From positions 207,300-271,299 of the forward strand of contig CAZNDZ010000001.1 of assembly GCA_964572155.1 (NCBI GenBank): a DNA stretch of 64,000 bases, given 5' to 3'. A program made the position numbers and the translations under genes. Positions 41,301 through 56,361 of the stretch are shown in pieces. Position 1 is the stretch's first letter; every line of letters starts with the position of its first letter. The notes under the pieces are model-generated. The model ran no database searches, was not told the DNA's origin, and worked only from the letters and a program-made list of their open reading frames with translations. The DNA comes from an uncultured Planctomycetales bacterium. Its GTDB lineage: Bacteria; Omnitrophota; Gorgyraeia; Zapsychrales; Fredricksoniimonadaceae.

Positions 41301-41842
41301 GCGGGATCTGTCACCGCATTTTGCAGCGCCCCTTGCAGGGCATTTGATAAAAATGTCTCCGTCGTCGAAAGCCCCGCATCTTTCTGCAATTGATTCCAAT
41401 ACCGCGTCAATCCCGGCTGAACCACCGCCACTTGCAACACCAAGCTTGCTGCGGATAAAGCTATCGATGCGGTTCCAACCGTGATCCCTAAACCAGGCAC
41501 CACTTGACTTAATGCAGCTTGACATGGTGTACAAAAAGTAACAATAATAATTACTAACAACAATGACAACAATGCCCCAAAAATACTGTTGTGTTTACAT
41601 TTCTGAAATGCACCGCCCAACTGCGTGCGCATTTGCATTTCACCGTAGCTCGCATAATTCGACGCCAACGATGACGCCGATGTTGTTGCTGCCACTGTCG
41701 TCACATTCTTAATCTGGGAAATACGACCCCAATTAAGCGTGATCGCAAATAAAATGATCGCAATTGAGCTCATGATGATTAACAATACTGAAGCTTGTCC
41801 GTTTTTCTTATGCATGCATCCTCTAATATTTAACCGCGGCAT
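38366..41842 (-). CDS. Giant (1158 aa) TadG/TadE-family pilin-like protein with a Cys-rich ~50-aa repeat array; putative pilus tip adhesin
   Basis: N-terminus ...MHKKNGQASVLLIIMSSIAIILFAITL (TadE/G-like; the real start may be M10 at 41815). The protein has more than 60 Cys. Repeats: CLKWYSDYDSQAGAHYYFKRCQ, CAVNSEYINWLNQSITYFGQTRAQYCG, CLGNTYVTWLQSKITEYGSNTISQIC, CSTPVAYSQWLQDSQASYAGEQTFAQYC, CTAGVNNKGQYQTWLDNTMAAMTG. Confidence 0.6.
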   Translation of the reverse strand: MPRLNIRGCMHKKNGQASVLLIIMSSIAIILFAITLNWGRISQIKNVTTVAATTSASSLASNYASYGEMQMRTQLGGAFQKCKHNSIFGALLSLLLVIIIVTFCTPCQAALSQVVPGLGITVGTASIALSAASLVLQVAVVQPGLTRYWNQLQKDAGLSTTETFLSNALQGALQNAVTDPAQVTDYFDSNSNGRHGFNVDRGKSEDTISRYAFYNTEQLRALRSKRGTVDLSVFTSGLTTLLPKISNPAPDVKSKDPRYNPCCQPLTDPESGKSLRPAANICPDRAQVPAICNNGNVWAFGSTYPLSYDPTRPDYTKFDSFLSKLGIDEEARVGGYPNVFTTNPASPNNTGLFKALWDMQDIRHKPSDADIAATAPSALISDAVDSDPKFFAPANMCANTTAPEDGLNWKPGKEAFCRTPDWPYEECDKYNCAGVNNGDDCCTAAESTSGLWPEDLLDDTIDHLKLFYAWGKAVLATDPAVLSTSLETFYDETPNPPQLSGKDWVGPVCDGNNDAVCGNGYSDGADGGALYTLHRRLKTWGETHLRPWLDKDHSSDTAWCVPTNQGGLSTLEQNTIAAGNVWGTLPTVVQCLKWYSDYDSQAGAHYYFKRCQDKIEGIKNSGTLVAKFQTCKTDYDKAIQAQTFDTCQTAVNATLAKAQASDQYRGCLARIDTLKAAGPGYCAGNPTAPPSPDCDSFALTAPSPAKPDIYDGCAVNSEYINWLNQSITYFGQTRAQYCGAPTKPTACTVLANTTGEPSFTNANVCLGNTYVTWLQSKITEYGSNTISQICANGPIASCQNLPASAIVPMPDDCSTPVAYSQWLQDSQASYAGEQTFAQYCATNPNRPPSPECDQATTLPRSVYGNYTGPYDVCTAGVNNKGQYQTWLDNTMAAMTGPGGQQEKFRNRYNYLSPILANVSSATEAVEEFTDDLKTFIDGPAQALVAARTAQNAAQINSIPNSIIYGWRDPDPPVGKGRTEGYWHVVQVSASAPGTLPSIGTKRKGFLGMTRCYFLRNYDGMARVNVVRWDEDHDTASFANKMPIWKVSFRKPGTEDAQNPSIPCTGGANSWNKIGLSANPDTFTQLSSVWGVETSNLTKPLLQGAFMISGEPPLNGAGRACYDHVMFNLLPKGVTTSVCARYGRDNNSGGLGVHFEKCP
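39150..40075 (-). repeat. Array of about 5 Cys-bounded 'C..Y..WL......(Y/F)G......(Y)C' repeats (aa ~591-896) in the 1158-aa protein
   Basis: Residue positions counted in the ORF translation: aa 591-612, 713-739, 765-790, 813-840, 872-896. The period is ~50 aa. Confidence 0.55.
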
Positions 41843-42050
41843 TCACGCGCTTTGTTCGATAAAATTCTGGTTGTAACTGCTGACGTACGTCTGTCCCATT
41901 TGTCATCGTGCTCTCATTTTCATAACGGCGTTCCGCTAAATCCATCCCCGCCCAGCGAAAAATCCGAATCATCCCTAAAGCTAATAAACAAATGGCAATC
42001 ATCACAAAGGTCATCTCAATCGTTGATTGGGCCCTTACCTTTCGGGTCAT
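41823..42050 (-). CDS. TadE-like small pilin-like protein (75 aa)
   Basis: KVRAQSTIEMTFVMIAICLLALGMI class-III SP-like N-terminus. Sits between the two large pilin-like genes and overlaps both ends. Confidence 0.5.
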   Translation of the reverse strand: MTRKVRAQSTIEMTFVMIAICLLALGMIRIFRWAGMDLAERRYENESTMTNGTDVRQQLQPEFYRTKRVNAAVKY

Positions 42051-43402
42051 GGTAATTTTCCTTTAGTGTCCGTCAGCCACGCATGCCCTGTTTTGTCTAA
42101 AACGCGTGTACGTATATACAGCATTTTAGAATCTGTGTCGAAACAGGTTAACTTAATATTATCTCCTGAGAAACACGATGACCCTCCCAATATACCCCCG
42201 CCGCCACATGCTTCCACAGGATTTTCTGTATTGTCAGGTAAGGTTGCCCTGGGCACGCCATTAACACAAAAACGTTGTGTGTCTCTGGTTAACTGAAACA
42301 TGCGTTGAACCAGTTCCACTTGATTTTTAACACCCGTGCTGCGCGCATATTGTCCGTCCTCAGGATTATAAAGTTTTCCTTCTTTAACTTCAAAGTATGT
42401 GCCAGGTTTTGTTTGCGTTAAAATGGACATTTCCCGCTGCAAGCCTGGGGTTCTGCCATTGATATACTCAACACTGCCATCATAATCCCCTTCTTGATTG
42501 TCCATGACCGTTGCTGATGATGCAATGCCATTGGCATCCACGTTATACGCGTAAATCTGTTCATCTTGCCCGTCATTGTCTAAATCAAATGAGGTATTTG
42601 TGCTATTGCCCACATCCACATTTAAATCAATAGCCCTAACTGCTTTCCAGTGCCATGCCATATCCGCACGGGCTAATTTGCCATTGGCAGCAGCCACTTG
42701 AGGATCGTCAGTAAAAATGTCATTGCGGTTTAGGTCATACGCTTCTTTATCTGTTAAAACACCTTGGTCTGCATTGGTCGACTGATTATAAAATAGCGGA
42801 CAGCCGTGCCACGTTTCAACAACTGGATTAACAAGCGGATCGCTGGTTGTTCTTAAACACTGAAATTCCCAACCCTTGTATCGTGTGATGCTAGTGTCGT
42901 CTGGATTGGTTGGCGTGATCGCAACGGGGGTTCCTGAATATGAACGTTGAAATCCCGCCGGCGGATCAAATGTTTTTGGCACCAGCGCCGCCGTGGTTAA
43001 AGGAATATGCACACCATTAACATAAAGATCGGTGGTTGGAAAATTACGTGCGTCAGATAATTCTGAACCTTCGAGGGGGTAATACAATAAATTGGTTAAC
43101 ATGCCGCTGCCCATGGTAAAAAGTTGCGTGCGGTCACTGTTGCCATAGCGGCTAATATCTGGTGAAAGTCTGTCTTCTAAATAAATCACACTACTATTCA
43201 TGCGACCAACGGTTCTGGTCAAAGAGTCATTATACGATTGCAAGAGCGCCATGCGCATGGCTTTTAATTGCACATTTTGTTGCTGGCTTGCAGACACACT
43301 GTTGCGGACAATGCCGCCGATCAAAAACACTAAGACAGCACCGAATACAGCTAATTCCGTCGCTGCTTGTGCTTTTTTATGCTTATTGAGAAACAAAAAC
43401 AT
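42047..43402 (-). CDS. TadG/TadE-like large pilin-like protein (~451-463 aa)
   Basis: ...MFLFLNKHKKAQAATELAVFGAVLVFLIGGIV... N-terminus. The track start is 43438; the internal ATG 43402 is preferred because it reduces overlap with the upstream pilin gene. The remainder is hydrophilic and Asp/Asn-rich. Confidence 0.55.
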   Translation of the reverse strand: MFLFLNKHKKAQAATELAVFGAVLVFLIGGIVRNSVSASQQQNVQLKAMRMALLQSYNDSLTRTVGRMNSSVIYLEDRLSPDISRYGNSDRTQLFTMGSGMLTNLLYYPLEGSELSDARNFPTTDLYVNGVHIPLTTAALVPKTFDPPAGFQRSYSGTPVAITPTNPDDTSITRYKGWEFQCLRTTSDPLVNPVVETWHGCPLFYNQSTNADQGVLTDKEAYDLNRNDIFTDDPQVAAANGKLARADMAWHWKAVRAIDLNVDVGNSTNTSFDLDNDGQDEQIYAYNVDANGIASSATVMDNQEGDYDGSVEYINGRTPGLQREMSILTQTKPGTYFEVKEGKLYNPEDGQYARSTGVKNQVELVQRMFQLTRDTQRFCVNGVPRATLPDNTENPVEACGGGGILGGSSCFSGDNIKLTCFDTDSKMLYIRTRVLDKTGHAWLTDTKGKLP

Positions 43403-43709
43403 TCCCACTCTTGCTCTCCGAGGATGACGATGAATCAATGCGATTCGTAAAATATTCTGTCTGCCCTGTTTGTGGATTTAACAACGGAACCGCCTGGACC
43501 ATGGTTTGAGATTGCGCCTGTGATGAATACCTGACGACGGAATTAACTTTCGATGGATCATACTGATCACCAAAATCATCGACGCTTTGCTTCCACCGCC
43601 CCTGAAATCCGCGCTTGATATACGTATTCATGGCCAGAAGCGCGAAAATAACAATCATCGCCAACACAATAAACTCAACCATCGATTGTCCATTATGTTT
43701 AAGTTTCAT
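43383..43709 (-). CDS. Flp-family pilin-like protein 8 (108 aa)
   Basis: MKLKHNGQSMVEFIVLAMIVIFALLAM: G/xxxxEF motif plus a hydrophobic helix. Confidence 0.6.
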   Translation of the reverse strand: MKLKHNGQSMVEFIVLAMIVIFALLAMNTYIKRGFQGRWKQSVDDFGDQYDPSKVNSVVRYSSQAQSQTMVQAVPLLNPQTGQTEYFTNRIDSSSSSESKSGNVFVSQ

Positions 43710-43712
43710 AAC

Positions 43713-44033
43713 TTAATTAATCCCTGCGTTTGTGACTGTATTTGTAAATGTTTGTGACGTTTCACTAACAATGGTTTGTATCCCCGCCGCTGTTTCATAA
43801 ATTTCTTTATTACTGCCCATTGAAACCATGGAATTTGACGTATCTAAATGCGATGATCCCGCACTATAATCTTGCTCAGAATTTTCTTGTGCTGCTAATT
43901 GGTCTGCCGTTGCCTTAATAATGCTTTGCGTTCCACGTTTAAAAGAGGGCGCCATAAAATACACCGCTGTCATCACCACGCCGACGATGATAATATATTC
44001 AACCAAAGATTGTCCCTGCGCATTATATTTCAT
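43713..44033 (-). CDS. Flp-family pilin-like protein 7 (106 aa)
   Basis: MKYNAQGQSLVEYIIIVGVVMTAVYF. Confidence 0.6.
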   Translation of the reverse strand: MKYNAQGQSLVEYIIIVGVVMTAVYFMAPSFKRGTQSIIKATADQLAAQENSEQDYSAGSSHLDTSNSMVSMGSNKEIYETAAGIQTIVSETSQTFTNTVTNAGIN

Positions 44034-44440
44034 TTAGCAGCCTCTGCTGGTGGCAACTGCGCACTGTCCGACCCTATTTGAGTGCTTTGTGCAAAATATT
44101 TTCCCCATCGCCCGTTTTCATCAAGAACCTTTTTATCCACACTATCGCGTCGCACCTCTGCTTCTGACTGGCCATAATATGGCTCATACTCATACGCTAT
44201 TTTTTGCGTTGCTGGATCAACCTTGGCTGCTCCTAAACAATCAACGCCACCGGCCGTTGCCTGCGTGCAGGCTTGGGTCGCCATATCAACCATATAAATT
44301 TTTCCATCACGATGCCTTGCTTGAAGGCCGCGCTGCACATAAAGTGTCATGGCTGAAATGCCTGCCACCACTACAAAAAACAAAAGCACGTATTCGCTGG
44401 TAACCATCTGCCCTTTGCGTGCGTGCTTGAGTTTCATCAT
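44030..44440 (-). CDS. Flp-family pilin-like protein 6 (136 aa)
   Basis: MMKLKHARKGQMVTSEYVLLFFVVVAGISAM; the C-terminal part contains 3 Cys. Confidence 0.55.
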   Translation of the reverse strand: MMKLKHARKGQMVTSEYVLLFFVVVAGISAMTLYVQRGLQARHRDGKIYMVDMATQACTQATAGGVDCLGAAKVDPATQKIAYEYEPYYGQSEAEVRRDSVDKKVLDENGRWGKYFAQSTQIGSDSAQLPPAEAAK

Positions 44441-44543
44441 ATCATCTCTAAATTTGCTTGAATATTATAAGCCCTAAAGGGGGGATATCGCTATCCCCCC
44501 TTATAAGACTTAAGACACCTCTTAACAAAAACACCTTAAGAGA

Positions 44544-44876
44544 CTATTCCCACTTCTCTCTGGAGGTATTAATGATTTGCGATGTTTCTGTTGTTAGATT
44601 GCTTTCAGTACCATTAATTACCGTCTTTGAAACACCTTGACCAGCGGCGCCACCAAATGTTTCGATGGTGTTGCTGTGCGTTGATGTTATTTTAACGGCC
44701 TTGGTATTGTCTGGTGAATATTGATCACCGATATCATCCGCAGATGACTTGACCTTACCTTGGATACCACGTTTGAGGTATGTTTGCACCGCGAGCAATG
44801 CGCCGATGATGATGATGATCAAAATCGCGTATTCAAGCGTGCTTTGAGCTTTCTTATTATTAAAGTGTTTAAACAT
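44544..44876 (-). CDS. Flp-family pilin-like protein 5 (110 aa)
   Basis: MFKHFNNKKAQSTLEYAILIIIIIGALLAV. A strong SD (AAGGAGGAG) precedes the ATG. Confidence 0.65.
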   Translation of the reverse strand: MFKHFNNKKAQSTLEYAILIIIIIGALLAVQTYLKRGIQGKVKSSADDIGDQYSPDNTKAVKITSTHSNTIETFGGAAGQGVSKTVINGTESNLTTETSQIINTSREKWE

Positions 44877-44893
44877 TACAACTCCTCCTTGTA

Positions 44894-45262
44894 TTAGAGC
44901 CCAGTTGGCATGTCGCCTGTACCAGCTGTAACATTATTTGAATATGTGGTTGATTGTTCACCTTGTTTTAAACGAGAATTTGCACTATCAGCTGCAACAA
45001 CACCTTCATCTAATATCTTTTTCTCTGTAGAATCTTTTTGAACAGAATAATTAGATTGTTGGTAATAAGGTTCATATTGCACTGATTTTCCTAATTGGCC
45101 TGTTGAATTAGCCATATAGGTACTGGCGTCACGCACACGGGCTTGCAATGCACGTTGTGCATATTGTTGCATCGCCACGATACCTGCCACAACCAAGGCG
45201 ATTAACAACGCATATTCTGCGGTGTTTTGAGCTTTCTTATTCTTTAATAAATGCTTAAACAT
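44894..45262 (-). CDS. Flp-family pilin-like protein 4 (122 aa)
   Basis: MFKHLLKNKKAQNTAEYALLIALVVAGIVAM; SD AAGGAGGAAATA upstream. Confidence 0.65.
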   Translation of the reverse strand: MFKHLLKNKKAQNTAEYALLIALVVAGIVAMQQYAQRALQARVRDASTYMANSTGQLGKSVQYEPYYQQSNYSVQKDSTEKKILDEGVVAADSANSRLKQGEQSTTYSNNVTAGTGDMPTGL

Positions 45263-45285
45263 ATATTTCCTCCTTATATGGGAAA

Positions 45286-45588
45286 TTAACCTTCACAATT
45301 ATTAGTTGCTGGATTGAATCTTTGATTTCCAGTACACAAACCTTGATTGGCTTGATTGCCAAAAATATTTGTATTAACTGTTGTTGTTGTAAATGTATCT
45401 TGTGCCGTAACCAATTTACCTGCCATGCTGTTAGCTTGTTGGGTTACTTGATCCATAGACGCATTCATTCTTTGCTTGAATGGGCTCGCATCTGAAACTA
45501 AGAAGGCGATTAAGATGACAATCACCCCTGTGACCAAGACGATATATTCTACCGTGCTCTGGCCTTTTTGACGATTTCTTAAAAACAT
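45286..45588 (-). CDS. Flp-family pilin-like protein 3 (100 aa)
   Basis: MFLRNRQKGQSTVEYIVLVTGVIVILIAFLV; SD AGGAGGAACA upstream; 2 Cys near the C-terminus. Confidence 0.65.
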   Translation of the reverse strand: MFLRNRQKGQSTVEYIVLVTGVIVILIAFLVSDASPFKQRMNASMDQVTQQANSMAGKLVTAQDTFTTTTVNTNIFGNQANQGLCTGNQRFNPATNNCEG

Positions 45589-45621
45589 ATGTTCCTCCTG
45601 AAAGTAAGTGGGTTGCTTTGT

Positions 45622-45813
45622 TTAAGGCGTGTTGGCCAAACGCGCTGCCGCGTTGGTCATGCTCACGCTTAATGTGTCCATCGTATTCGTCATCCGACGC
45701 TGAAACAGTGAACCATTCGTTGCCATATAGGCAATTGCCACCATCACAACAGCCGTGACGAGGATAATATACTCGACAGTACTTTGAGCTTTATCCTTTG
45801 ATGGCTTAAACAT
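45622..45813 (-). CDS. flp: Flp pilin (63 aa), candidate major pilin
   Basis: MFKPSKDKAQSTVEYIILVTAVVMVAIAYMA: canonical Flp size and motif. Strong SD AAAGGAGAGGGG upstream. Confidence 0.7.
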   Translation of the reverse strand: MFKPSKDKAQSTVEYIILVTAVVMVAIAYMATNGSLFQRRMTNTMDTLSVSMTNAAARLANTP

Positions 45814-45845
45814 GTGCTCCCCTCTCCTTTTAAGTTTATTAAATA

Positions 45846-45995
45846 TTAATTGGCGAATTCTTGTGTGACAGCTTTTTGGGTCGCTTGCGCGGAACGAAAT
45901 ACATAGGTACTCATCGCTGCAACAGCAGCGGTGATAACAGCCACGACAATGGCATATTCGATCAGGTTTTGTCCACTGGACTTGTGTAGTTGCAT
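45846..45995 (-). CDS. flp: Flp pilin (~49 aa from the internal ATG; 68 aa if from the track start 46052), candidate major pilin
   Basis: MQLHKSSGQNLIEYAIVVAVITAAVAAMSTYVF... An AAAGG lies ~11 nt upstream of ATG 45995. First gene of the pilin run. Confidence 0.6.
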   Translation of the reverse strand: MQLHKSSGQNLIEYAIVVAVITAAVAAMSTYVFRSAQATQKAVTQEFAN

Positions 45996-46120
45996 CGTCG
46001 TGTGACCTTTGTATTTGTTAATGCTGTCCTGGCCCTTAGTTTGTCCCAACAACTCAAACTAATCAAGAACTCTTGGTCGCGGGCCTTCATTTATATTAAA
46101 TCCCCATAGGGGATAGAATT

Positions 46121-46133
46121 CATACCAATGGTA
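46121..46133. promoter_or_regulatory. 13-bp palindrome ATACCA-A-TGGTAT in the leader/promoter region of the pilin gene run
   Basis: Read directly. Lies in the 46053-46159 AT-rich spacer upstream of the first flp gene; a possible operator. Confidence 0.25.
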
Positions 46134-46159
46134 TAGTATGGCATATTATATATAGAGCG

Positions 46160-47641
46160 TCAACCTAGACGCGCCCATATTTTTCGGCCATGTTGGTCAA
46201 TAATATCTAAATTATTTAAAAGCCTGCATGAATGCTCAATCGAATCAAAATCTTTATAACCTTCTGTTCTATCTATGGTTACAACATTTAAACGGGCATT
46301 AAATTGCCTGCGTGTGCGAAGCGCGTTGGCACTATCATCAAATACGCCGAAAAGATGTGCCGCATAGTCTGTTTTTAAGTTGTTTAAAGTCGCATTATCA
46401 GCTTTTTTATCTTCTGGCGCGCTATCTAACGTAAAGGTATGCACATAGCTTAAAACGATGTCTTGATCTGAAGTTGCATTTGCAATATTAGTAATCAAGA
46501 CCCGTTCTGGTTTTCCTTCACTGGACAAAATTACAAAGCCGCGATAGGACTCATCTGCCAAAATAATGTCACGGCTTACAAATTTGACAGGTTGATGCAA
46601 AACATAGGTGTTGACCATTTGGATTGGACTTAAATCACCCGCCATCAAAGAAGCCATGTCTTTATTGGCGACATCTATACCTATAATAAATTGACGCTTT
46701 ACATGCGCAATTGGCGCAAAATCAATCAATACATCTTGATTGGAATCAACAAGCGCAATGCGACTGATTTGCTTTGACGGGTCATTGCTCATAGCTCTTA
46801 AAAAATCGTAAACAGCAGCGTCGAGAAAATCACTTTTAATGTTTTTAATAATCAGTGGTCGGATATTATTAAGCAACGTATCTGCCATCCGCAGCGTCGC
46901 GGTCTCTATTGGCGTTAGTCGCAGGGGCTCACAAAAATTGCGAGCAATATCGTGATGACGCGCATCAATGAAAAAATGACTGTCGTCGCCAAGTTCCACT
47001 TTAAGACAAGCCACGCCAATTTGCCGATACGCCGCTTCCTTGGCAAGGGTTGCTGCATCAACGTTTTCTAAATCGTCGACGGATTTCACACTACCCCATG
47101 GACTTGGAAATAAATCGTTGAACGCTGCTTGGATAAAGAAATCTTTAGCTGTTGCAACATCCGCCCCATCTTCAAGCGGTGGTAAGGTATTGATCGTCGG
47201 TAAATCTGCTTCTCGCGGCGGATCTTGAAATAGTGGGATCATTGGTTCGACACGTAAAGTTAACGGCTCGTCCTGTTGTGCGTCTTCTTTGATGTCGTCT
47301 TGTGAAGACATGATAGGCAAATCTTCAGACGCCATTAATGGCGTCTCTACGGATAATTGTGGAACCGTGGGAATGTTGGCAATGATGGCGGGGGGCAAAC
47401 TGGCAATCAATTGCGCTTTTTTATCGTCGGGGATCTGAAATTTATTTTTAAACTTTCGACCACGCGGACTTACAATGTTAGCTTCTTTAAGCACTTCGTG
47501 CACGGAAGACTTGGATACAACCCGACCAAATTGTTTATCAACTAATTCAACCAACTCTCGACAAGAAAGATTGGCAGATTGTTTTTTCTGGTCCAAGATA
47601 AAAGCAACCACGTCATCCGTTAATTTATACGTTACACCCAT
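46160..47641 (-). CDS. Hypothetical 493-aa protein with an N-terminal HTH-like segment, embedded in the Tad locus
   Basis: MGVTYKLTDDVVAFILDQKKQSANLSCRELVELVDKQFGRVVSKSSVHEVLKEANIV (helix-turn-helix-like), a Pro/Asp-rich linker, then a ~330-aa domain I could not assign. Confidence 0.5.
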   Translation of the reverse strand: MGVTYKLTDDVVAFILDQKKQSANLSCRELVELVDKQFGRVVSKSSVHEVLKEANIVSPRGRKFKNKFQIPDDKKAQLIASLPPAIIANIPTVPQLSVETPLMASEDLPIMSSQDDIKEDAQQDEPLTLRVEPMIPLFQDPPREADLPTINTLPPLEDGADVATAKDFFIQAAFNDLFPSPWGSVKSVDDLENVDAATLAKEAAYRQIGVACLKVELGDDSHFFIDARHHDIARNFCEPLRLTPIETATLRMADTLLNNIRPLIIKNIKSDFLDAAVYDFLRAMSNDPSKQISRIALVDSNQDVLIDFAPIAHVKRQFIIGIDVANKDMASLMAGDLSPIQMVNTYVLHQPVKFVSRDIILADESYRGFVILSSEGKPERVLITNIANATSDQDIVLSYVHTFTLDSAPEDKKADNATLNNLKTDYAAHLFGVFDDSANALRTRRQFNARLNVVTIDRTEGYKDFDSIEHSCRLLNNLDIIDQHGRKIWARLG

Positions 47642-47644
47642 ATA

Positions 47645-47986
47645 TTATGTGATCGTCAGTTCATCCCCTTGTTGAGTTTGCGTCTGATCAATTTTACCAG
47701 CAGGTAATTCAATCGCGCAACAAGAATTAAAGAACAGGGGAGACAAATGATATGGCTTTAATTGACGGCACAAACCAACAACACGATTTTTCTGATCTAG
47801 AAAAATAACATCGATTGCAAAACGCATAAAAAACATGTGCACCGACGAGCAAGGCGTGATCTGTAGGCCTTCTCCATCTGGCAAATAGTTTTCCCCAAGC
47901 AAACCCTTCATGCGTAGTTTGGCTGTGTCCGCAACTCTCAGGCGTGTCGCTAAGATGCTGTTGCGGGTTTTGTTGGTTAGCGTCAT
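47645..47986 (-). CDS. DUF192 (COG1430) family protein, frequently associated with tad loci
   Basis: ...RLRVADTAKLRMKGLLGENYLPDGEGLQITPCSSVHMFFMRFAIDVIFLDQKNRVVGL...CCAIELPAG matches the DUF192 pattern (A...RxxGLMgr...gmlf...vhmf.m.f.lDiifld). Confidence 0.55.
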   Translation of the reverse strand: MTLTNKTRNSILATRLRVADTAKLRMKGLLGENYLPDGEGLQITPCSSVHMFFMRFAIDVIFLDQKNRVVGLCRQLKPYHLSPLFFNSCCAIELPAGKIDQTQTQQGDELTIT

Positions 47987-47988
47987 GT

Positions 47989-50175
47989 TTATGGATTAAA
48001 AATATTCTTAGAAAGTGGGATGCCGCGTGTTTGGAAGTCTTCGAAAATTTTTGGCACATACCCTGTGGGCGTATATTCACCAACAACAACCCCTTCGGCA
48101 TTGATGCCGCGTTGACGGAAGATGAAAATGTCTTTCATTTCAGGAAGGCCGTCGACCATGTTACCTGTAAGCTCCGTGATCGCGGTGATCTTACGCGTCC
48201 CGTCGGAGAAACGGTTAATTTGAATGACAATATTGATCGCAGATGCCGCCATTTCATAGATCGCGCGCAATGGCAATTCAATCCCTGAGAGCAGCACCAT
48301 GGAGGTCACACGAGACATAACGTCGCGTGGTGTGTTGGCGTGAAGCGTTGTCAACGAACCATCGTGACCTGTGTTCATCGCCTGCAACATGTCTAAAACT
48401 TCCGGTCCACGACACTCACCGATAATAATGCGGTCTGGGCGCATACGTAACGTGTTAATAAATAACTCACGGATGGTGATCTTACCACGACCTTCAATGT
48501 TCGCTGGTCTTGCTTCAAGGCGCGCCCAATGTGATTTGGTTAAACGCAATTCCGCCGCGTCTTCGATTGTAATGATGCGTTCATTATCAGGAATAAATTG
48601 TGAAACAATGTTGAGCAGCGTTGTCTTACCAGCGCCGGTACCACCAGAGACAATAATATTCTTACGCCCAATAACGCACGCATTCATAAACTCACCCATG
48701 GCAGGCGTCAGCGAATGAAAACGATTAAGCAAATCATCGATCGTATATTTTTCTTGAGAGAATTTACGAATGGTGATCATGGGGCCGCCCAACGACAACG
48801 GCGGAATGATGGCATTGATACGGCTTCCATCAGGCAAACGCGCATCCACCATCGGCGTTGATTCATCAACCCGACGACCTAAAGGTGCTAAAATACGATC
48901 AATCGTTGCACGCACCTGATCGTTGGAAATAAAACGCTTATTCGTGAGCAGCAATTTACCTTTTTTCTCAACAAAGATTTCATCCTTATTGTTAACCATG
49001 ATGTCATTGATATCGACATCCGCTAAGAAATCTTCCAATGGCCCCAAACCTAAGGCCTCGTTGACAATTTCACGCACAAGTTTAGAACGTTCTTCTTGAG
49101 ATGAAATAAAACTACCCGATGCATCGGTCATCAAATCGGTTACAATAACTTCGGCTGCCTTGCGAATATTTGCAGCTTGCGCAGGATCTGAGAGCGCTTC
49201 CGGCGATATCTTTTGCAAATTCATGCGCTCAACCAACTTTTGATGGATTAAGCGCTTTAATTTAATAACTTCGTCTTCTTCTTTTTTAAAATAAGTCCCG
49301 CCACCAGAGCCCTGCTTAATACCAAATTTTTCCCAGAACTCGGCATCTTTCTTATTCTTAGGGTCTGCCGAGCGAACCTTAACAACGTCGGAGACCTGCA
49401 CAAAGATGTCTTCATCTTGTAATTTATCCGCCATGCCAAAAAACAGCTCGGAGACTTTTGCCTTTGGACTGTCTAAAACACATGGAATACCGCGATTAAG
49501 CGCTGAACCAACGGTTTTACCGTCGGATGGGATTAACGCAAAAATATCGCAAGGCAATGCTGTTTTCACTTCTTGCCATGCAACACCCCCGCGACTTTCA
49601 GCACGATTTAATATGATTTTAATCATACGCAGCGGATAATGCAGTGCTTGCAACATCTCAAGCGTTGACTTGGCTTGATACACCGCCAAGACATCCGGCG
49701 TGGTTGGCAAGAAAATCAAACTAGATTGATCAAGAACGCTAATCAAGACTTCATTAAATGTGCCGCCGCCATCGACGATGATATATTCATATTGTAACAT
49801 GGCGCGTTTTAAAAATATGCGCACATTGTCGCCTGTCACCAAACCTGCTTGCCGTAAATGATTAATGCCAGATAAGAAATCAACGCCGCTAACATGCTTA
49901 ACCACAAAACGACGCATAAAATCTGGGTTGTCATCTTTGGCCACTTCAGCGAGCAAGTCTGCTAAACAAAATGGTGCGGAAATATTTAAGGAACGGGCAA
50001 GATCTTGACCCGCTTGTAAATTCATATCAAGCAACAATACTTTCTTAGCCTTCATGGCAAGCGCGGCAGCAATGTTTGCGCTAATAAAGGTCTTACCGAC
50101 CCCGCCCTTATTGGAAAATATGGTTATGATTTTACAAGACATACTTCTCTTTGGATCATTTTGCCTGGTAGACAA
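47989..50175 (-). CDS. cpaF: Fused Tad secretion ATPases: N-terminal CpaE/TadZ-like ParA/MinD ATPase plus C-terminal CpaF/TadA VirB11-family ATPase (728 aa)
   Basis: N-part: KIITIFSNKGGVGKTFISANIAAALAMKAKKVLLLDMNLQ (deviant Walker A) ...YIIVDGG... C-part: ...IIVSGGTGAGKTTLLNIVSQFIPDNERIITIEDAAELRL...PDRIIIGECRG...NTGHDGSLTTLHAN... (CpaF/TadA Walker A and B, Asp and His boxes). One ORF, no internal stop. Confidence 0.8.
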   Translation of the reverse strand: MSTRQNDPKRSMSCKIITIFSNKGGVGKTFISANIAAALAMKAKKVLLLDMNLQAGQDLARSLNISAPFCLADLLAEVAKDDNPDFMRRFVVKHVSGVDFLSGINHLRQAGLVTGDNVRIFLKRAMLQYEYIIVDGGGTFNEVLISVLDQSSLIFLPTTPDVLAVYQAKSTLEMLQALHYPLRMIKIILNRAESRGGVAWQEVKTALPCDIFALIPSDGKTVGSALNRGIPCVLDSPKAKVSELFFGMADKLQDEDIFVQVSDVVKVRSADPKNKKDAEFWEKFGIKQGSGGGTYFKKEEDEVIKLKRLIHQKLVERMNLQKISPEALSDPAQAANIRKAAEVIVTDLMTDASGSFISSQEERSKLVREIVNEALGLGPLEDFLADVDINDIMVNNKDEIFVEKKGKLLLTNKRFISNDQVRATIDRILAPLGRRVDESTPMVDARLPDGSRINAIIPPLSLGGPMITIRKFSQEKYTIDDLLNRFHSLTPAMGEFMNACVIGRKNIIVSGGTGAGKTTLLNIVSQFIPDNERIITIEDAAELRLTKSHWARLEARPANIEGRGKITIRELFINTLRMRPDRIIIGECRGPEVLDMLQAMNTGHDGSLTTLHANTPRDVMSRVTSMVLLSGIELPLRAIYEMAASAINIVIQINRFSDGTRKITAITELTGNMVDGLPEMKDIFIFRQRGINAEGVVVGEYTPTGYVPKIFEDFQTRGIPLSKNIFNP

Positions 50176-51910
50176 TAGGAATGGTTACATTTAAATCCGA
50201 CGCTTGCATGTCTTTTGAAAATGGAGCGTAAGGCGCCGCGATTTTGGCAGCATTTAACGCATCGTCGTCGAAAGCTTGATGCCCCGAAGACTGCACCACG
50301 TTAGCTGCAATCAATGTCCCATCTTTTTGAATATTTAGTCTTAATTTAACTGTGCCCTGCCATTTATTTTTCAATGCTTCCAGTGGATATGAAATATTTT
50401 GCGATATCTTCACTTGAATATCTTGCATATATTTCTGAACGGTCGCAATCGGCTCTTGAACAGCTACTTCTTTTTTAATCTGCTCTTCTAAGATCGCCTT
50501 GGGCTTCTGCGCCGGCATTTCAACGCGTTTAACCTTTGCTGGCACAACAGCTGGCTCATCTTGTGCTGGCATGGTTGTAACATTACCCATATTAGGATTT
50601 GGATCAACCGGCTCACGCTTATAATTATTTATTTTCTCTGCTTCATCAACAAAATCATTTAATTCCTTCGTTGGTATTACAAATTGATCCTTGGCATATT
50701 TTTTATTATGCACAATAACTGGCGTTAAGGTGATCACAAGTTCCTTGGCTTCATCTGGTGCTTGCTTAGAAGAGCTTCTAAACATCATCCCAACAACGGG
50801 AATCTTTCCTATAAATGGAACGCTTTTCTTTTGATCACTGTCTGTATAACGAATCAACCCCGCCATAACCACCGTTTGTTTATCATCCAACATCAATTGC
50901 GTTGTAGCGTTGCGTGTTTTATAAGCGACACCGTTTGTCGATGTTGCGGCAACAGGAAATGTTGTATCAATGTCGCTGACTTGCAAGTTCATCAACACAT
51001 CGATCTTGCCTTCTTTAATTGTTGGTGTAACTGTAACGGTTAAACCATATTGCTTGAAGGTGACATTGGTTTGTGTGCTGGTCGATGACGCAGATGTTGT
51101 GGTCGACTGGATTGGTACTTCCCCGCCAACATTAATGGTGGCTTCTTTACCGCTGGTTACCAACATGCGTGGGCGTGATAATGTGCGCGCTTTACCTTGA
51201 GACACTAAAAGATTAATGGTGTTGATGATGCTGGTGGTGCGATTAAATTGCCCTAACTTAAACCAGTTGGGAGACCCACCGGTTGTTGGGTTGCCTGATT
51301 CCGCATAAGTTAATGTTGTGCCGCCGCCGCTATTTGTCCAATCAAATCCTAACTTCTTATCAAGTGTTGAGGATAATTCCGTGATCTGCATATCAATCTG
51401 AATTAATTCCTGCGCTTCATCTTCCTTGCACAAATTAATCACTTGTTCAGAAAATGGTTCGAGCACTTTATCTAAACGGGATTTTTGATCTTTATTAACG
51501 TTGCCCGAAAGAACCACTTTGCCTTCCACATAATTAGCATCATAAACAATTGTTGTAATACCAGCATCTTTCAATAGCGTTTCAATGCGTGCTTTAATCC
51601 TTGCTAAGTCATCATTAGCGACGTTGACGGAATAAACCTTCTTGCCACCTTTATCCCAAACAAAAAGGATCGTGTGCCCCATGCGCCTTGCCACAACAGA
51701 AACTTCATTATCATTGGCGTCAGCAATGTCAGCAATGTCAGGATCAGTTACAGAAACGCGAGTTAAACCATCGACCTTAACGTTCTGAACGTCGCCTAGG
51801 ATCATGTTAATATTATGGTCTTCTTGGGCAATGGACATTGTCGCTTGTGACCCTATGAAAAGAAGTCCCAGCGCAACGAAAGATAATTTAATACGGGAGA
51901 TGCGCATCAA
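50156..51910 (-). CDS. cpaC: Tad secretin (CpaC/RcpA) with a C-terminal TonB-C-like domain extension
   Basis: Signal peptide MMRISRIKLSFVALGLLFIGSQATMSIAQ. Secretin C-domain ...VPFIGKIPVVGMMFRSSSKQAPDEAKELVITLTPVIV. The last ~110 aa (...ISYPLEALKNKWQGTVKLRLNIQKDGTLIAANVVQSSGHQAFDDDALNAAKIAAPYAPF...) match the TonB_C signature YP..A...eGtV.v.f.I..dG.v....V..SSG...LD.aA..Av...p..P. Confidence 0.75.
   Translation of the reverse strand: MMRISRIKLSFVALGLLFIGSQATMSIAQEDHNINMILGDVQNVKVDGLTRVSVTDPDIADIADANDNEVSVVARRMGHTILFVWDKGGKKVYSVNVANDDLARIKARIETLLKDAGITTIVYDANYVEGKVVLSGNVNKDQKSRLDKVLEPFSEQVINLCKEDEAQELIQIDMQITELSSTLDKKLGFDWTNSGGGTTLTYAESGNPTTGGSPNWFKLGQFNRTTSIINTINLLVSQGKARTLSRPRMLVTSGKEATINVGGEVPIQSTTTSASSTSTQTNVTFKQYGLTVTVTPTIKEGKIDVLMNLQVSDIDTTFPVAATSTNGVAYKTRNATTQLMLDDKQTVVMAGLIRYTDSDQKKSVPFIGKIPVVGMMFRSSSKQAPDEAKELVITLTPVIVHNKKYAKDQFVIPTKELNDFVDEAEKINNYKREPVDPNPNMGNVTTMPAQDEPAVVPAKVKRVEMPAQKPKAILEEQIKKEVAVQEPIATVQKYMQDIQVKISQNISYPLEALKNKWQGTVKLRLNIQKDGTLIAANVVQSSGHQAFDDDALNAAKIAAPYAPFSKDMQASDLNVTIPIVYQAK
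50159..50500 (-). other. TonB-C-like domain fused to the secretin C-terminus
   Basis: See above; coordinates derived from residue positions ~470-584. Confidence 0.5.
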
Positions 51911-52785
51911 AGCTCCTTGCCGCCTCTAAAGATTTGTATATCTGGTTTAGCGGGCTTGTCGTCGTCTTGATTAATGATGCCTTTTAAATCGTCCGGTAAA
52001 TCAATGTCTGCGCCTTGATTTTGCAAGACATAATCTGCCAATGTTTTCCATGTGGTTGTCTTGACCATTTGGCGTTCGGTTTCTTGAGGAGAACGCAATG
52101 CAAATTCAAGCGTACCATTCTTATCCGCAAAAATTAAATAACCTGCTTCTTGAGGATCAACCGCTAAGGTCACCTTGATCGCCGGAGAATTTTGTTGTTC
52201 TTCATAACGTGTGCCTGTTTCATCTAAATTGGTGTTAACCGCCAAGACTTCTAGGCCTTGAAAGACCATGGCCGTAATGGTTTTTTGTTTGCGTTCGCCA
52301 TCTTTGCCTAATCGGCCTTCAGGAACATTGAGCCTTGCGATGATGTCAACCATATCCCCTGGATTAAGCAAACCACCGACGGCTGCCAAAGAATCGATCT
52401 TAACGGTAACCGCGCGCTTGCCTTGTGGCGTCTTTAACGCTAAAGAAGGTTTGGATTTCTTAACAGGTTGTCCACCTGCATTAGCTGCTTGTTGTTGCTG
52501 TAATTTCGTTTGAAGCTCAGCAATTTGCTTTTGAACCACTTGGGCTTGTTCAGTGCGCACTGCTTGGATTTGTTGCTGTAAAATCGCCGCGCGTTGATCT
52601 GCTTGCGCTTGCATTTCAGCAACTATTTTCTTTTGCTTAGCTTCATATTCTTCCCGACGCTCAATATCGTGGCGCTCAATGGTGCTGTTGACAGCAAAAC
52701 CAATCACGGCTGTTGCCGCGATACCCAAGACCACCGCGACGATCAGCAATAGAATTTGTTTTTTATTATTATCCATAGTGCGCAA
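51907..52785 (-). CDS. cpaB: Flp pilus assembly protein CpaB/RcpC (TM anchor, Q-rich coiled coil, SAF/RcpC domain)
   Basis: MRTMDNNKKQILLLIVAVVLGIAATAVIGF; a coiled coil with a QQQQ run; ...RAVTVKIDSLAAVGGLLNPGDMVDIIARL... Overlaps the secretin start (ATGA). Confidence 0.7.
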   Translation of the reverse strand: MRTMDNNKKQILLLIVAVVLGIAATAVIGFAVNSTIERHDIERREEYEAKQKKIVAEMQAQADQRAAILQQQIQAVRTEQAQVVQKQIAELQTKLQQQQAANAGGQPVKKSKPSLALKTPQGKRAVTVKIDSLAAVGGLLNPGDMVDIIARLNVPEGRLGKDGERKQKTITAMVFQGLEVLAVNTNLDETGTRYEEQQNSPAIKVTLAVDPQEAGYLIFADKNGTLEFALRSPQETERQMVKTTTWKTLADYVLQNQGADIDLPDDLKGIINQDDDKPAKPDIQIFRGGKEL

Positions 52786-52805
52786 AACCTCCTAATCCCG
52801 TTGGC

Positions 52806-53735
52806 TTATTTGCCGCCGCCAATGAGATTTTGATTAACCCTAACCTTAATTTTTTCTGCTAAATTATTGATGTGTTCTAAAACCGCCTGTTGTTGCTTGC
52901 GTGTGGTCAATGCTGCGATCAAATCTGCCTTGATTTCAGCAAATTGTTTTGTCTCGCCGCCTTTTTTCTCGTCGACATGGACAATATAATAATTGTTGTC
53001 CGCGCCTTTAAAAACACCGCTAGTACCACCGGCATCTAAATTCGCTATGGCAGATTGCATCGCCGCTGTTGGGGCTTTGGTAAAAGTCTTTAACGCGCCA
53101 CCATCCGCTGCAGTTTTACCCTTGGATTGCGCCTTGGCGATATCAGCAAAATTGCCACCTTGTAAAATAGAAACCAAAACATTCTTCGCGGTAGCTTCAT
53201 CCGCTAATACAATCTCGCGCACCTTCCATTGGATAGGCATGACAAAATCGGCTTTATTATCATTGTAATATTTTTGTGCTTCTGCTTCTGTGACGGTCAC
53301 ATCTTTGGTTAAACGATTCGCTAATTCTTGAACTAACATGGTGCGACGAAAATCTTCAACAGCTTCGGAAATATCTTTGCTTTGACCAATGCCGCTATCC
53401 TCTGCGTCTTTTACCAACAATTGTTGGCGAATGAGTTCGTTGAGAACTTGTTCCTTAACACCTGGTTTGCTTGGATCAAAGGTTGGTAAACTTTCTTTGA
53501 GCAATCGAATACGCTGATTAAACTCTTCGGTCGTTAATGTCCAGCCGCCAACCTTTGCGATGACATCATCGGAGAGGGGCTTATTATCGTCAGAAACAAC
53601 ATCCGGCGTGGAAGCCTTAGTGGTTTGCGTTGATGCTACAGGAGCCTTTGTCTCTGGTTTTTTAGGATTAATGATGTCGCAACCTGTTACAGCAAAAGCA
53701 ATAACAACAACTAAAAAACCGCAAAAACGATTCAT
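52806..53735 (-). CDS. Parvulin-type peptidyl-prolyl cis-trans isomerase lipoprotein (PpiC/PrsA/SurA-like)
   Basis: Lipobox MNRFCGFLVVVIAFAVTGC. SurA-N-like helical part, then a parvulin domain (...GGNFADIAKAQSKG...GGALKTFTK...GVFKGADNNYYIVHVDEKK...). Confidence 0.7.
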   Translation of the reverse strand: MNRFCGFLVVVIAFAVTGCDIINPKKPETKAPVASTQTTKASTPDVVSDDNKPLSDDVIAKVGGWTLTTEEFNQRIRLLKESLPTFDPSKPGVKEQVLNELIRQQLLVKDAEDSGIGQSKDISEAVEDFRRTMLVQELANRLTKDVTVTEAEAQKYYNDNKADFVMPIQWKVREIVLADEATAKNVLVSILQGGNFADIAKAQSKGKTAADGGALKTFTKAPTAAMQSAIANLDAGGTSGVFKGADNNYYIVHVDEKKGGETKQFAEIKADLIAALTTRKQQQAVLEHINNLAEKIKVRVNQNLIGGGK

Positions 53736-53815: not shown

Positions 53816-54799
53816 TTATGCTACCAAAGCTTCAACTGCTTGCTTTTCCGAAATTAGCTCTTGAAGCGTTGCTTGAATTTTTTCTTTAGCAAAGGCATTG
53901 TGTTCTAAACCTTGCACAATTTCCCAATCTTGGCCATTGCTACGCAACGGATACCCAAACATAATCCCTTGTGGAACGCCATAGCTGCCATCTGATGAAA
54001 CAGCTGCAGAGAAAAATTCGCCTGCAGGGGTTGGCGTGATGATCCCGCGCACGGTATCAATGACCGCATTGGCTGCCGACGCTGCAGATGACAGGCCACG
54101 CGCTTTGATGATGGCTGCGCCGCGTTTCTGAACGGTTTCAATAAAGGTTGTTTTAAGCCAGTTTTCGTCGGTGATCGCCGCTGTCGCTGGTTTACCGTTG
54201 ACGGTGGCATGATAAAAGTCGGGATATTGCGTCGCTGAGTGATTCCCCCAAATGCCGACATTTTTAACAGCGGTTGTGGCCACTGCAGATTTTTGAGCCA
54301 ATTGTGTTGTGGCACGATTTTGATCAAGCATGGTCATGGCAAAAAAGTTTTTTGCTGGGATGTTTTTAGCCGTGCTCTTTGCAATCCATGCATTGGTATT
54401 ACAAGGATTCCCGACGACCAAAACCTTGCACGTTGGCTTTGCGCTATTCGATAAGGCCTTGCCTTGTTCGATAAAAACGCCGCCATTGATTTTCAACAAA
54501 TCGCCGCGCTCCATGCCTTCTTTGCGTGGGACGCTACCAACTAACAGCGCCCAATCAATGTCTTTGAAGGCAACATTAGGATCCGACGACATGGTGACTG
54601 ATTTTAACAATGGAAATGCGCAATCATCGAGTTCCATGATAACGCCGCCTAAAGCTGGCAGGGCTTTTTCAAGCTCGAGCAAACTTAATTCAACTTCTGT
54701 ATCACGCCCAAACATCTCACCGGAGGCGATGCGAAATAACAAGGCATAACCAATTTGACCTGCAGCACCCGTGATTGCGACTTTAACTTTTTTTGCCAT
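53816..54799 (-). CDS. mdh: Malate dehydrogenase (NAD), LDH-like type 2 MDH
   Basis: [31 protein letters not shown] (GxGxxG), ...[14 protein letters not shown]..., 327 aa. Confidence 0.85.
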
Positions 54800-55601
54800 A
54801 TTTTTTCTCCTCGATTAACGACGGTAATTTTGTTCGCGCTTCTTGTATTTTTTCAAGCGTGATATCCGCTGTGATGATCACTTCTTTGTCCAAACTGCCT
54901 TGCGCGATGATCTCGCCCCACGGGGAAATGATCATGCTATGCCCATACGCTGGCATACCTTGCCCATCTAATCCCACTTGATTGGGCGCCAAGACATACG
55001 ATAAATTTTCAATGGCCCGCGCTTGAAGCAATGCTTGCCAATGCGCCTGACCTGTCGCTTTCATAAAACACGACGGAACAACCAACACATTAGCACCCTG
55101 ACGGGCATAATGTTGATATAAATCAGCAAACCTTAGGTCGTAACAAATGGACATTCCAACCGAAAAGTCCTCGACCTTTGCCATCACTTTTTTTGTTCCC
55201 GCCTTAAAACAATCGGCCTCACGTACGATCTTATCACCCAGCCTCGCATCAAATAAATGAATTTTGCGATATTTTGCTGCAACCTTGCCCTGTGCATTAA
55301 TAAGCACAGAGGTGTTGTACATTTTTTTAGGGTCTGTGGTTTTTTCTAGGATGGATCCAAGCAGGATGTTTGCTTGATATTTTTTGGCAAGTAAAATGAA
55401 TGGCGCTGTTGAGGGCCCAGGTATTTTCTCTGCTACGTGAAATTTTTCAGGATGCCGTGGATCACCGCGCCAATGAAAAATTTCTGGCAATAAAACAAAT
55501 TTGCTGCCCTTGGCTAATGCCTTAGTGACAAACCCTACCGCTCTTGTAATATTTTCTTGTTTGTCCGCCGTGGCATTGAATTGGATTAGGGCAACGCGCA
55601 T
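54783..55601 (-). CDS. Carbon-nitrogen hydrolase (nitrilase superfamily)
   Basis: [18 protein letters not shown]... with the Glu (VLLPEIF), Lys (YRKIHLFD) and Cys ([13 protein letters not shown]) catalytic-triad contexts. The track start 55637 is reduced to the internal ATG ~55601 to abut the upstream gene. The 3' end overlaps the mdh start by 17 nt. Confidence 0.8.
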
Positions 55602-56236
55602 TATTTTTTTAACATCGCACCATATTCTTGGTAGCACGTTGTATAAAAACTTTGACTTTTAAGATTGTTGCGCCATGCGTTGAGTTTAGGATATGCGGCT
55701 AATGAGACGCCCGCGAGTTCCGAAGGCTCTAGCAATGAAAATAAGACAATATCAGCCAACGTCAACTTATCATTGACGATATAAGCGTGCGCCGCTAATT
55801 GTTGTTCAATGACGGGGAAATACATCTCTAAGAATTTAACAGCGTCATCAACGGACTGTTGGTTGACGGGACGATTCATGCGTGGGGCGAAAATACGTCC
55901 AAAAGCAATGCTGGATAAATGAACGCCAATATGGGTCGAGATAAAATCAATCCACTGATCAACAACCGCACGCGCTTTTAAATCTTTAGGATAAATTGGA
56001 GAATTTGCTTTTTCGGCTAAGTATTTACAACAGGCATTGCTTTCAAACAAATGAAAGCCGTTATCATCAATGGCGGGAACTTTGCCAACCGGATTGATTT
56101 TCAAAAACCATTCTTGCTTTTGTTCACCTTCACGCAAATTAACCAAATGCCACTTATGTTCCAACCCTAAATAGGTGGCGGTAAGTCTAACTTTGATTGC
56201 AGGTGATGATAAATCTGATCCATAGATGGTTAGCAT
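55601..56236 (-). CDS. Glutathione S-transferase family protein
   Basis: 211 aa; thioredoxin-like N-domain (MLTIYGSDLSSPAIKVRL...VPAIDDNGFHLFESNAC) and a helical GST_C domain. Confidence 0.7.
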   Translation of the reverse strand: MLTIYGSDLSSPAIKVRLTATYLGLEHKWHLVNLREGEQKQEWFLKINPVGKVPAIDDNGFHLFESNACCKYLAEKANSPIYPKDLKARAVVDQWIDFISTHIGVHLSSIAFGRIFAPRMNRPVNQQSVDDAVKFLEMYFPVIEQQLAAHAYIVNDKLTLADIVLFSLLEPSELAGVSLAAYPKLNAWRNNLKSQSFYTTCYQEYGAMLKK

Positions 56237-56287
56237 AATATTTCCTTGACGGTTTAATAAAGTTTACTATAATAACAAATCTTTCTA

Positions 56288-56361
56288 GACCCCATCGTCT
56301 AGCCTGGTCAGGACACGAGCTTTTCAAGCTCGGTGCGCGGGTTCAAATCCCGCTGGGGTCA
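56288..56361 (+). tRNA. tRNA-Glu (anticodon UUC)
   Basis: Cloverleaf by hand: acceptor GACCCCA/TGGGGTC, anticodon stem CGAGC/GCTCG with loop TTTTCAA (U33, anticodon TTC, A37), T-arm GCGGG-TTCAAAT-CCCGC, discriminator A. No encoded CCA. Confidence 0.8.

Follow-up and report, generated by a model that had tools for sequence, protein, structure and literature searches.

The window analysed here is a 64,000-nucleotide stretch of an uncultured bacterium that GTDB places within the Omnitrophota (NCBI GenBank assembly GCA_964572155.1, contig CAZNDZ010000001.1, positions 207,300 to 271,299 of the forward strand). Members of this phylum are uncultured nanobacteria believed to live as predators or parasites. 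The minus strand of the window carries a tad locus, and within it lies a single gene, termed tadZA, in which a ParA/MinD-type ATPase domain precedes a TadA/CpaF secretion ATPase. A preliminary description of this gene had proposed that TadZ/CpaE is fused to TadA/CpaF in one polypeptide of 728 residues, that the receiver-like N-domain typical of CpaE is absent, and that the fusion hard-wires polar localisation or a scaffold function to the motor. The gene and its parts, with folds modelled by AlphaFold2 (AF2), are as follows.

47989..50142, minus strand: tadZA coding sequence, 717 residues plus stop, from an ATG at 50142; the maximal open reading frame reaches a TTG at 50175
49408..50142, minus strand: TadZ-like ParA/MinD ATPase domain, residues 1-245, recognised by Pfam CbiA/AAA_31/ParA, TadZ alignment and AF2 fold; no receiver-like domain ahead of it
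50089..50109, minus strand: deviant Walker A KGGVGKT (K12, K17, T18), signature lysine and P-loop lysine both kept
49273..49407, minus strand: inter-domain linker, residues 246-290, variable in alignments and of low AF2 confidence
49321..49338, minus strand: FWEKFG motif, residues 269-274, with KK ahead of it; nearly invariant, candidate TadZ/MinD-type amphipathic membrane-targeting helix
47992..49272, minus strand: TadA/CpaF motor, residues 291-717, complete, with three-helix NTD1 (N-terminal domain 1), NTD2 and RecA-like CTD (C-terminal domain)
48619..48645, minus strand: CpaF Walker A GGTGAGKTT, with G500, G501, G505, K506 and T507 invariant in 42 diverse fused homologues

The fused reading frame

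In the open reading frame (ORF) listing of the window, 47989..50175 on the minus strand is one ORF of 728 codons if counted from the TTG, and its translation has no internal stop, neither at the junction, where the preliminary description had asked for a check, nor elsewhere. Initiation at the TTG would run the gene into the upstream secretin gene, the stop codon of which ends at 50156. The alternative ATG at 50142 lies 13 nt past that stop with the purine-rich AAAGAGAAG ahead of it, and there is no coding sequence between the secretin stop and this start codon. The product from the ATG is identical to database protein P0001, and its 717 residues are likelier than the proposed 728, although the ORF does span 728 codons. 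TadZA residue numbers are therefore counted from the methionine at 50142, with Pfam and NCBIfam match coordinates given on the 728-codon ORF.

Hidden Markov model (HMM) parsing recovers both halves of the proposed fusion. Pfam CbiA/AAA_31/ParA match ORF residues 14-218 (E 3.5e-15 to 7e-11) and NCBIfam MinD-type models residues 15-261 (E about 1e-20), followed by Pfam T2SSE at residues 375-652 (E 1.7e-56) and an NCBIfam TadA-family match at residues 339-667 (E 2.3e-95).

A TadZ-like ATPase domain at the N-terminus

The N-domain was searched by tblastn against a collection of 72,556 plasmids in which ParA genes abound. The top matches were 'AAA family ATPase' genes positioned directly upstream of a 'CpaF family protein' in loci of the order cpaB-secretin-...-cpaF-tadB-tadC, and not ParA or MinD. 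In pairwise alignment, residues 4-220 match residues 132-347 of a 392-residue stand-alone plasmid TadZ with 29% identity (E 1e-29). The first ~131 residues of stand-alone TadZ, comprising the atypical receiver domain (ARD), are unmatched in the window protein. Walker A already begins at residue 12 of the 717-residue product, and a Pfam scan of TadZA yields no match to Response_reg, TadZ_N or any receiver domain. These comparisons indicate that the N-terminal 245 residues share ancestry with the ATPase domain of stand-alone TadZ/CpaE and that the ~130-residue ARD has no counterpart, as the preliminary description had supposed. Profiles built from fused N-domains gave scores in keeping with a TadZ-type domain, namely 93-193 bits on two plasmid-borne TadZ proteins and 52-93 bits on E. 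coli MinD, with the median over 58 stand-alone TadZ ORFs beside tadA in GTDB genomes at 128-187 bits. The position of the domain, after the secretin gene and ahead of the CpaF part, also fits TadZ.

The AF2 model of the N-domain has a predicted local distance difference test score (pLDDT) of 86. PDB 3ea0, a ParA-family ATPase of Chlorobium tepidum, is its best match both in sequence (E 2.1e-15) and in fold (TM 0.85-0.90, root mean square deviation 2.0 Å), where FlhG, MinD and FleN come next. Like the N-domain, 3ea0 is a 245-residue single domain without an ARD, but it stands alone and its Walker A reads KGGDGGS. A literature search on its genomic context found nothing relevant.

Residue conservation was counted over 81 Omnitrophota-type homologues, 62-100% identical. 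K12, G13, G14, G16, D39 and D124 are invariant and K17 is kept in 80 of the 81. Among the 58 stand-alone TadZ, in contrast, the P-loop lysine is absent in 36, with GK[ST] present in 20. The variant Walker A without this lysine (K/RGGxGxS/T), a TadZ/CpaE trait though not a universal one, is absent from the window protein. Distant fused homologues such as P0154, P0159 and P0186 have degenerate P-loops. Residue 41 (50020..50022, minus strand) is Asn in the window protein; of the 81 homologues, the window protein included, 55 carry Asp at this position and 26 carry Asn.

The TadA/CpaF motor

Over residues 294-717 the window protein is 46% identical (E 1e-136) to residues 8-421 of a 427-residue CpaF, the neighbour of the aligned TadZ in a Paraburkholderia plasmid tad locus. 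The top Foldseek matches of the AlphaFold model in the PDB, 8rjf, 8rkd and 9e24, are all Caulobacter CpaF, with 8rjf at 43% identity (E 7e-37). The T2SSE-type domain includes Walker A, Asp and Glu boxes, Walker B and a His box, and the 42 diverse homologues in which the Walker A residues are invariant also share E527, E531, R566-R571, G575, E576, H593 and H601. In the AF2 model, helices at residues 291-341 precede NTD2. On alignment and model together, the CpaF part is complete from the three-helix NTD1 onward. The partners expected of a TadA, namely RcpC/CpaB, an RcpA-type secretin and split TadB and TadC, are all encoded in the same locus.

The linker and its conserved motif

The linker between the two ATPases is variable and modelled with low confidence, at pLDDT below 50 across residues 258-289, yet it holds residues that hardly vary. 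Among the 81 homologues F269 is conserved in 80, W270 in 81, K272 in 81, F273 in 76 and G274 in 80, and R257 is likewise invariant or nearly so. Because the linker holds invariant residues, selection appears to act on the joined reading frame. The element KK..FWxKFG sits about 24 residues past the ATPase domain. Short tails of basic and hydrophobic residues close the stand-alone TadZ proteins, for example KKSLFAWR, RRGLLSSLFGG, GWLSKILKRA and KRRLFRLGRV, and the membrane-targeting sequence of E. coli MinD, KKGFLKRLFGG, resembles both these tails and FWxKFG.

Conservation of the fusion

A protein search over 5.8 billion sequences was used to retrieve the 120 best matches, which are 62-100% identical to the window protein and, where named, derive mostly from Candidatus Omnitrophota metagenome-assembled genomes (MAGs). 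In 118 of the 120, ParA-type and T2SSE Pfam domains lie in one chain of about 698-729 residues, and these 118 come from independent assemblies (NCBI, JGI, ENA, Logan). The remaining two, encoded on ~3-kb contigs, are shorter. The proposal of one intact ORF with a ParA/MinD domain fused ahead of a complete CpaF is borne out by this conservation, and the fusion is common among Omnitrophota homologues. Such proteins abound in public data, where they are called 'TadA', 'CpaF' or 'MinD', and JGI labels many of them 'septum site-determining protein MinD'.

As a separate observation, nearly all of the best 120 homologues carry the precomputed Pfam accession PF27713.1.

More distant relatives were sought among 1.84 billion representatives of 50%-identity clusters, all searched with HMMER, which returned many full-length single-stretch matches at 38-54% identity. 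When the best 150 were examined with our own domain HMMs, about 60 had a strong N-domain ahead of the CpaF part and 18 more a weak one. Representatives that are 38-40% identical bear the names Bdellovibrionales, Bdellovibrionaceae, Bdellovibrionota and Bacteriovoracia. Bdellovibrio sp. HCB288, the genome of which is complete, has a fused ORF that aligns with the window protein over 716 residues at 37% identity (E 3e-157) and lies within the gene order rcpC-secretin-tadZA-tadB. The architecture is therefore conserved across Omnitrophota and, by these alignments, end-to-end homologous with the Bdellovibrio fusion.

Distribution and loss of the receiver domain

Related genomes were surveyed, as the preliminary description had advised, through a GTDB scan in which 80 loci among the matches listed, a sample rather than a census, had their ORFs and domains checked by HMM. 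True single-ORF fusions with both domains were found in 12 of these loci: two in Omnitrophota, four in Bdellovibrionota (including Oligoflexia), one each in a 'Deltaproteobacteria' MAG, Elusimicrobiales, WOR-3 and Planctomycetales, and two others. The remaining 68, from Chloroflexota, Acidobacteriota, Actinomycetota, Bacillota and other phyla, have tadZ and tadA side by side as two genes, or tadA alone. A wider distribution, with the fusion in more than 60 loci of many phyla, had been suggested by matches to query residues from about 3 to 710, and was undone by the ORF and HMM check.

Fused and unfused proteins differ in what precedes the ATPase domain. Fused ORFs have 0-9 residues between the first Met and the N-domain, against a median of 135 in unfused TadZ, and in the strongly fused cluster representatives the N-domain begins at residue 31 or earlier. 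Loss of the ARD thus goes with fusion in every case of the sample. Fused proteins cluster in a neighbour-joining tree of CpaF domains, where 82% of the five nearest neighbours of fused proteins are themselves fused, against 27% for unfused proteins. One clade of 36 is 97% fused, with Bdellovibrionota outside it. CpaF identities in this set are all near 50%, and the fusion may have arisen once or several times.

The tad locus and its neighbourhood

Apart from one gene, the region is transcribed from the minus strand. Its order begins with dnaA, dnaN, gyrB and gyrA, continues through genes for a glutathione S-transferase, a nitrilase and malate dehydrogenase (mdh) to a Rotamase_2 peptidyl-prolyl isomerase (PPIase), CpaB/RcpC, a secretin with a TonB_C tail and TadZA, and then passes to DUF192, a 493-residue protein, a run of small ORFs, three uncharacterised proteins (463, 1158 and 111 residues), TadB, TadC and a 1352-residue protein. 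The tadZA gene therefore occupies the usual tadZ-tadA place after cpaB and secretin, and the locus lies within about 10 kb of the dnaA-dnaN-gyrB-gyrA replication-origin region (53816..63702, minus strand). The neighbouring features are:

52806..53735, minus strand: Rotamase_2 peptidyl-prolyl isomerase (Pfam) at the head of the locus, kept in the Omnitrophota MAG locus L007
51907..52785, minus strand: CpaB/RcpC (Pfam RcpC 9.6e-26; TIGR03177 5e-29, above cut-off)
50156..51910, minus strand: RcpA/CpaC-type secretin with C-terminal TonB_C (Secretin 2.9e-39; T2SS-T3SS_pil_N 2.8e-11; TonB_C 7.2e-18 at residues 505-581)
47645..47986, minus strand: DUF192 (COG1430) protein directly downstream of tadZA (Pfam DUF192 2e-18; L007 equivalent at 10171..10521)
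43383..46052, minus strand: run of small ORFs (Class_IIIsignal three times, 1.8e-4 to 0.017; Flp_Fap once, 0.032; all under curated cut-offs)
37164..38027, minus strand: TadB (Pfam T2SSF; TadB and TadC give 1.3e-15 and 1.3e-18)
36226..37164, minus strand: TadC (Pfam T2SSF, as above)
30930..32099, plus strand: AAA_14/DUF4143 ATPase gene, the sole plus-strand gene of the region, between the tad locus and a giant gene

L007 has the same mdh-PPIase-cpaB-secretin::TonB_C-tadZA-DUF192 order, including the secretin fusion (6143..7966). The secretin of Bdellovibrio sp. HCB288 has a BON domain instead. The TonB_C tail might anchor the secretin to peptidoglycan, or stand in for a pilotin or for TadD. 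The small ORFs with weak class III signal or Flp matches are candidate pilins, while the remaining small ORFs in 43383..46052 have no informative Pfam match. Four large proteins, all on the minus strand, have no significant Pfam or NCBIfam match (1352 residues, 32104..36162; 1158 residues, 38366..41842; 463 residues, 42047..43438; 493 residues, 46160..47641) and may represent adhesins, pilus-tip proteins or TadD/TadG-like components specific to the lineage. Among the locus ORFs scanned, 36226..53735, there was no prepilin peptidase (Peptidase_A24/TadV). Bdellovibrio tad loci likewise lack one, and use of the type IVa pilus peptidase PilD is reported there.

On the downstream side of the tad locus lies a frame (2..30508, minus strand) that continues for at least 10,169 codons without a stop and runs off the start of the window. 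It is an Omnitrophota 'giant gene' of the type in West-Roberts et al. 2023 (see also bioRxiv 10.64898/2026.06.07.730766). Around the AAA_14/DUF4143 gene that precedes it, the GC fraction falls to 0.365-0.371, and this gene may be an insertion.

Parts of such loci have been described before. Seymour et al. (PMC10066038) described Omnitrophota Tad loci, including that of V. archaeovorus LiM (CP019384.1 positions 12382-29832), and found that TadB and TadC group with those of Bdellovibrionales. West-Roberts et al. (bioRxiv 10.1101/2023.11.21.568195) reported a 'type II secretion-like' locus conserved upstream of Omnitrophota giant genes, with gspD, gspE, gspF, rcpC, a Rotamase_2 PPIase and class III signal-peptide genes. 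Neither account mentions the fusion.

Comparison with known systems

The preliminary description had held that TadZ and TadA are separate genes in characterised tad loci. This view is outdated, as B. bacteriovorus has an essential, experimentally studied "TadZA" that consists of TadZ without ARD, a linker and TadA (bioRxiv 10.64898/2026.07.08.737194, which credits a still earlier reference with noting the fusion). The architecture is therefore not new, and the window gene is an Omnitrophota member of the fusion type known from Bdellovibrio. Both proteins combine an ARD-less TadZ, a flexible linker and a C-terminal TadA, and both are encoded after rcpC and secretin. They differ in phylum and share only about 37-40% identity. 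Their linkers also differ, with the Bdellovibrionota motif GVLQRLKxLxRPK directly after the domain and the Omnitrophota FWxKFG about 20 residues further on. In Bdellovibrio tadB directly follows tadZA, whereas here DUF192, pilin-like genes and large unmatched genes intervene.

Caulobacter CpaE and CpaF, or stand-alone TadZ and TadA, are homologous to the two halves of the window protein at the identities given above, and the basic-hydrophobic helix that follows the TadZ domain in stand-alone TadZ has a candidate counterpart in it. CpaE and CpaF, however, are two gene products with an ARD present, while the window protein is one chain without it. Stoichiometry contrasts too. In situ, twelve CpaE, as six dimers, have been modelled round each CpaF hexamer, with adjacent dimers probably touching via their REC domains (PMC13170226), as opposed to a covalent 1:1 ratio in the window protein.

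A model for the fused ATPase

We consider it probable that tadZA encodes the motor of an Omnitrophota Tad (type IVc) pilus machine in its "TadZA" form. Such a gene probably arose when adjacent tadZ and tadA genes were joined, so that the TadZ tail with its amphipathic helix became the linker, and because of this FWxKFG would be the former tail helix, still able to engage the membrane. Given the retention of K12, K17, D39 and D124, the N-domain probably still binds ATP and forms ATP-dependent sandwich dimers like MinD and TadZ. Dimerisation would offer two amphipathic helices to the inner membrane and hold the CpaF hexamer under TadB/TadC. The tether would fix a 1:1 stoichiometry, with six N-domains and at most three dimers per hexamer, and this covalent link could make the ARD-mediated ring of six CpaE dimers modelled in Caulobacter unnecessary and take its place. 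Of the proposed hard-wiring, a dimerising ATPase and a probable membrane helix would indeed be tethered to the motor. Polar localisation is not obviously part of it, since the ARD, the proposed polar-targeting module of TadZ, is missing. In Bdellovibrio polarity is supplied in trans by RomR, which binds the TadZ domain and linker of TadZA (bioRxiv 10.64898/2026.07.08.737194), and spatial cues in Omnitrophota, if any, may similarly come from a partner. The machine would probably help the bacterium attach to a host or prey cell, together with the giant surface protein whose gene lies downstream.

Several points weigh against this model. The full-length AF2 model places the two domains relative to one another without confidence (predicted template modelling score 0.43). 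FWxKFG is a candidate membrane helix by resemblance, at a pLDDT below 50, and its hydrophobic moment of 0.40-0.50 lies under the protein-wide 95th percentile of 0.56, which is compatible with an amphipathic helix and not discriminating. Position 41 aligns with the second Asp of the switch-I DxD of MinD, which we take to be D40 of E. coli MinD, a hydrolysis residue, and Asn41 may impair or slow ATP hydrolysis and thereby lengthen the dimer state. NCBIfam ranks archaeal and bacterial MinD models (1e-22 and 1.6e-20) above CpaE_hom_Actino (2e-5), its sole CpaE-type model and an actinobacterial one, and the E. rectale TadZ structure 3fkq falls outside the top 50 Foldseek matches of the N-domain. 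The machine may be either an adhesive pilus or a secretion device for the giant protein.

The NCBIfam ranking invites the alternative that the N-domain is an independently recruited MinD/FlhG-type ATPase, making the protein a MinD-CpaF chimera unrelated to TadZ function. The canonical KGGVGKT shared with MinD, the closeness of FlhG, FleN and MinD behind 3ea0 in the fold search and the JGI naming all point the same way. The MinD equivalog models, however, reach only 73.6 and 80.5 bits where the cut-offs stand at 212.9 and 201.75, too low for membership, and the N-domain profiles give stand-alone TadZ roughly double the score of E. coli MinD. The best plasmid matches are TadZ genes in tad loci, and GK[ST] also occurs in 20 of the 58 stand-alone TadZ. 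The domain sits exactly in the tadZ position, among tad genes and with no minC or minE nearby. Independent recruitment is very unlikely on this evidence, and on balance the N-domain seems to be TadZ-derived, though relatively MinD-like. As a further alternative, the N-domain could be a degenerate, non-catalytic scaffold, in which case the fusion would add a docking surface without any ATP-dependent switch. E. rectale TadZ reportedly binds ATP in order to dimerise (PMC13170226), and low ATPase activity is reported for TadZ (PMC6668835); together with the degenerate P-loops of distant fused homologues and Asn41, these reports would suit such a role. The P-loop, D39 and D124 are nonetheless invariant or nearly so in the Omnitrophota clade, which argues that nucleotide binding at least is retained, and we regard the scaffold as unlikely, if less so than a recruited MinD. 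The chance that assembly or sequencing produced the fusion, through a lost stop codon or a frameshift between neighbouring tadZ and tadA, is negligible. Separate but adjacent genes are the rule in most genomes, and 68 of the 80 loci inspected are unfused, but the ORF is intact, the closest homologues from independent assemblies agree in length and domains, the linker residues are invariant, and the fusion recurs in the complete genome of a cultured Bdellovibrio. A sequencing error at the junction is ruled out by this conservation.

Implications of the TadZA form

A broader proposal can be drawn from the model of a TadZ-derived tether. ARD-less TadZA may define a subtype of Tad machine in Omnitrophota, Bdellovibrionota and some Elusimicrobiota, WOR-3 and Planctomycetota, in which the tether and an internal membrane helix replace the CpaE ring, a catalytically competent MinD-type switch with canonical Walker A gates engagement of motor and platform, and, in Omnitrophota, the machine is tied to the giant surface protein. 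As a whole this is a tentative proposal that we think considerably more apt to fail than to hold. Of the phyla with TadZA, only Omnitrophota and Bdellovibrionota have a documented or proposed life as predators or attached to hosts.

The details that appear new are the loss of the ARD with fusion in all checked cases, the canonical Walker A kept in Omnitrophota and the conserved linker motif FWxKFG; that the fusion is common among Omnitrophota homologues is a further, modest addition. No new class of mechanism is opened by the finding. Host attachment in Omnitrophota has its main genomic candidate in the tad locus beside the giant gene, and recognition of the Omnitrophota "gspE/TadA" as a Bdellovibrio-type TadZA means that results from Bdellovibrio can guide hypotheses for Omnitrophota, both on polarity through TadZ and linker and on prey invasion, in which Bdellovibrio TadZA is essential (bioRxiv 10.64898/2026.07.08.737194). 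The fusion also adds a molecular character to the earlier grouping of Omnitrophota TadB and TadC with Bdellovibrionales, and the coupling of ARD loss to fusion, together with the linker motif, provides concrete targets for mutagenesis in the tractable Bdellovibrio.

The N-terminus of CpaF is a recurrent site for added domains. Among ten other CpaF representatives checked, FHA was found in eight and Response_reg in one. FHA-CpaF and receiver-CpaF resemble TadZA in carrying an N-terminal addition, but they add signalling modules and no second P-loop ATPase. Separately, P0121-P0124, P0126 and P0129 are chains of 830-1600 residues with two to four tandem CpaF modules.

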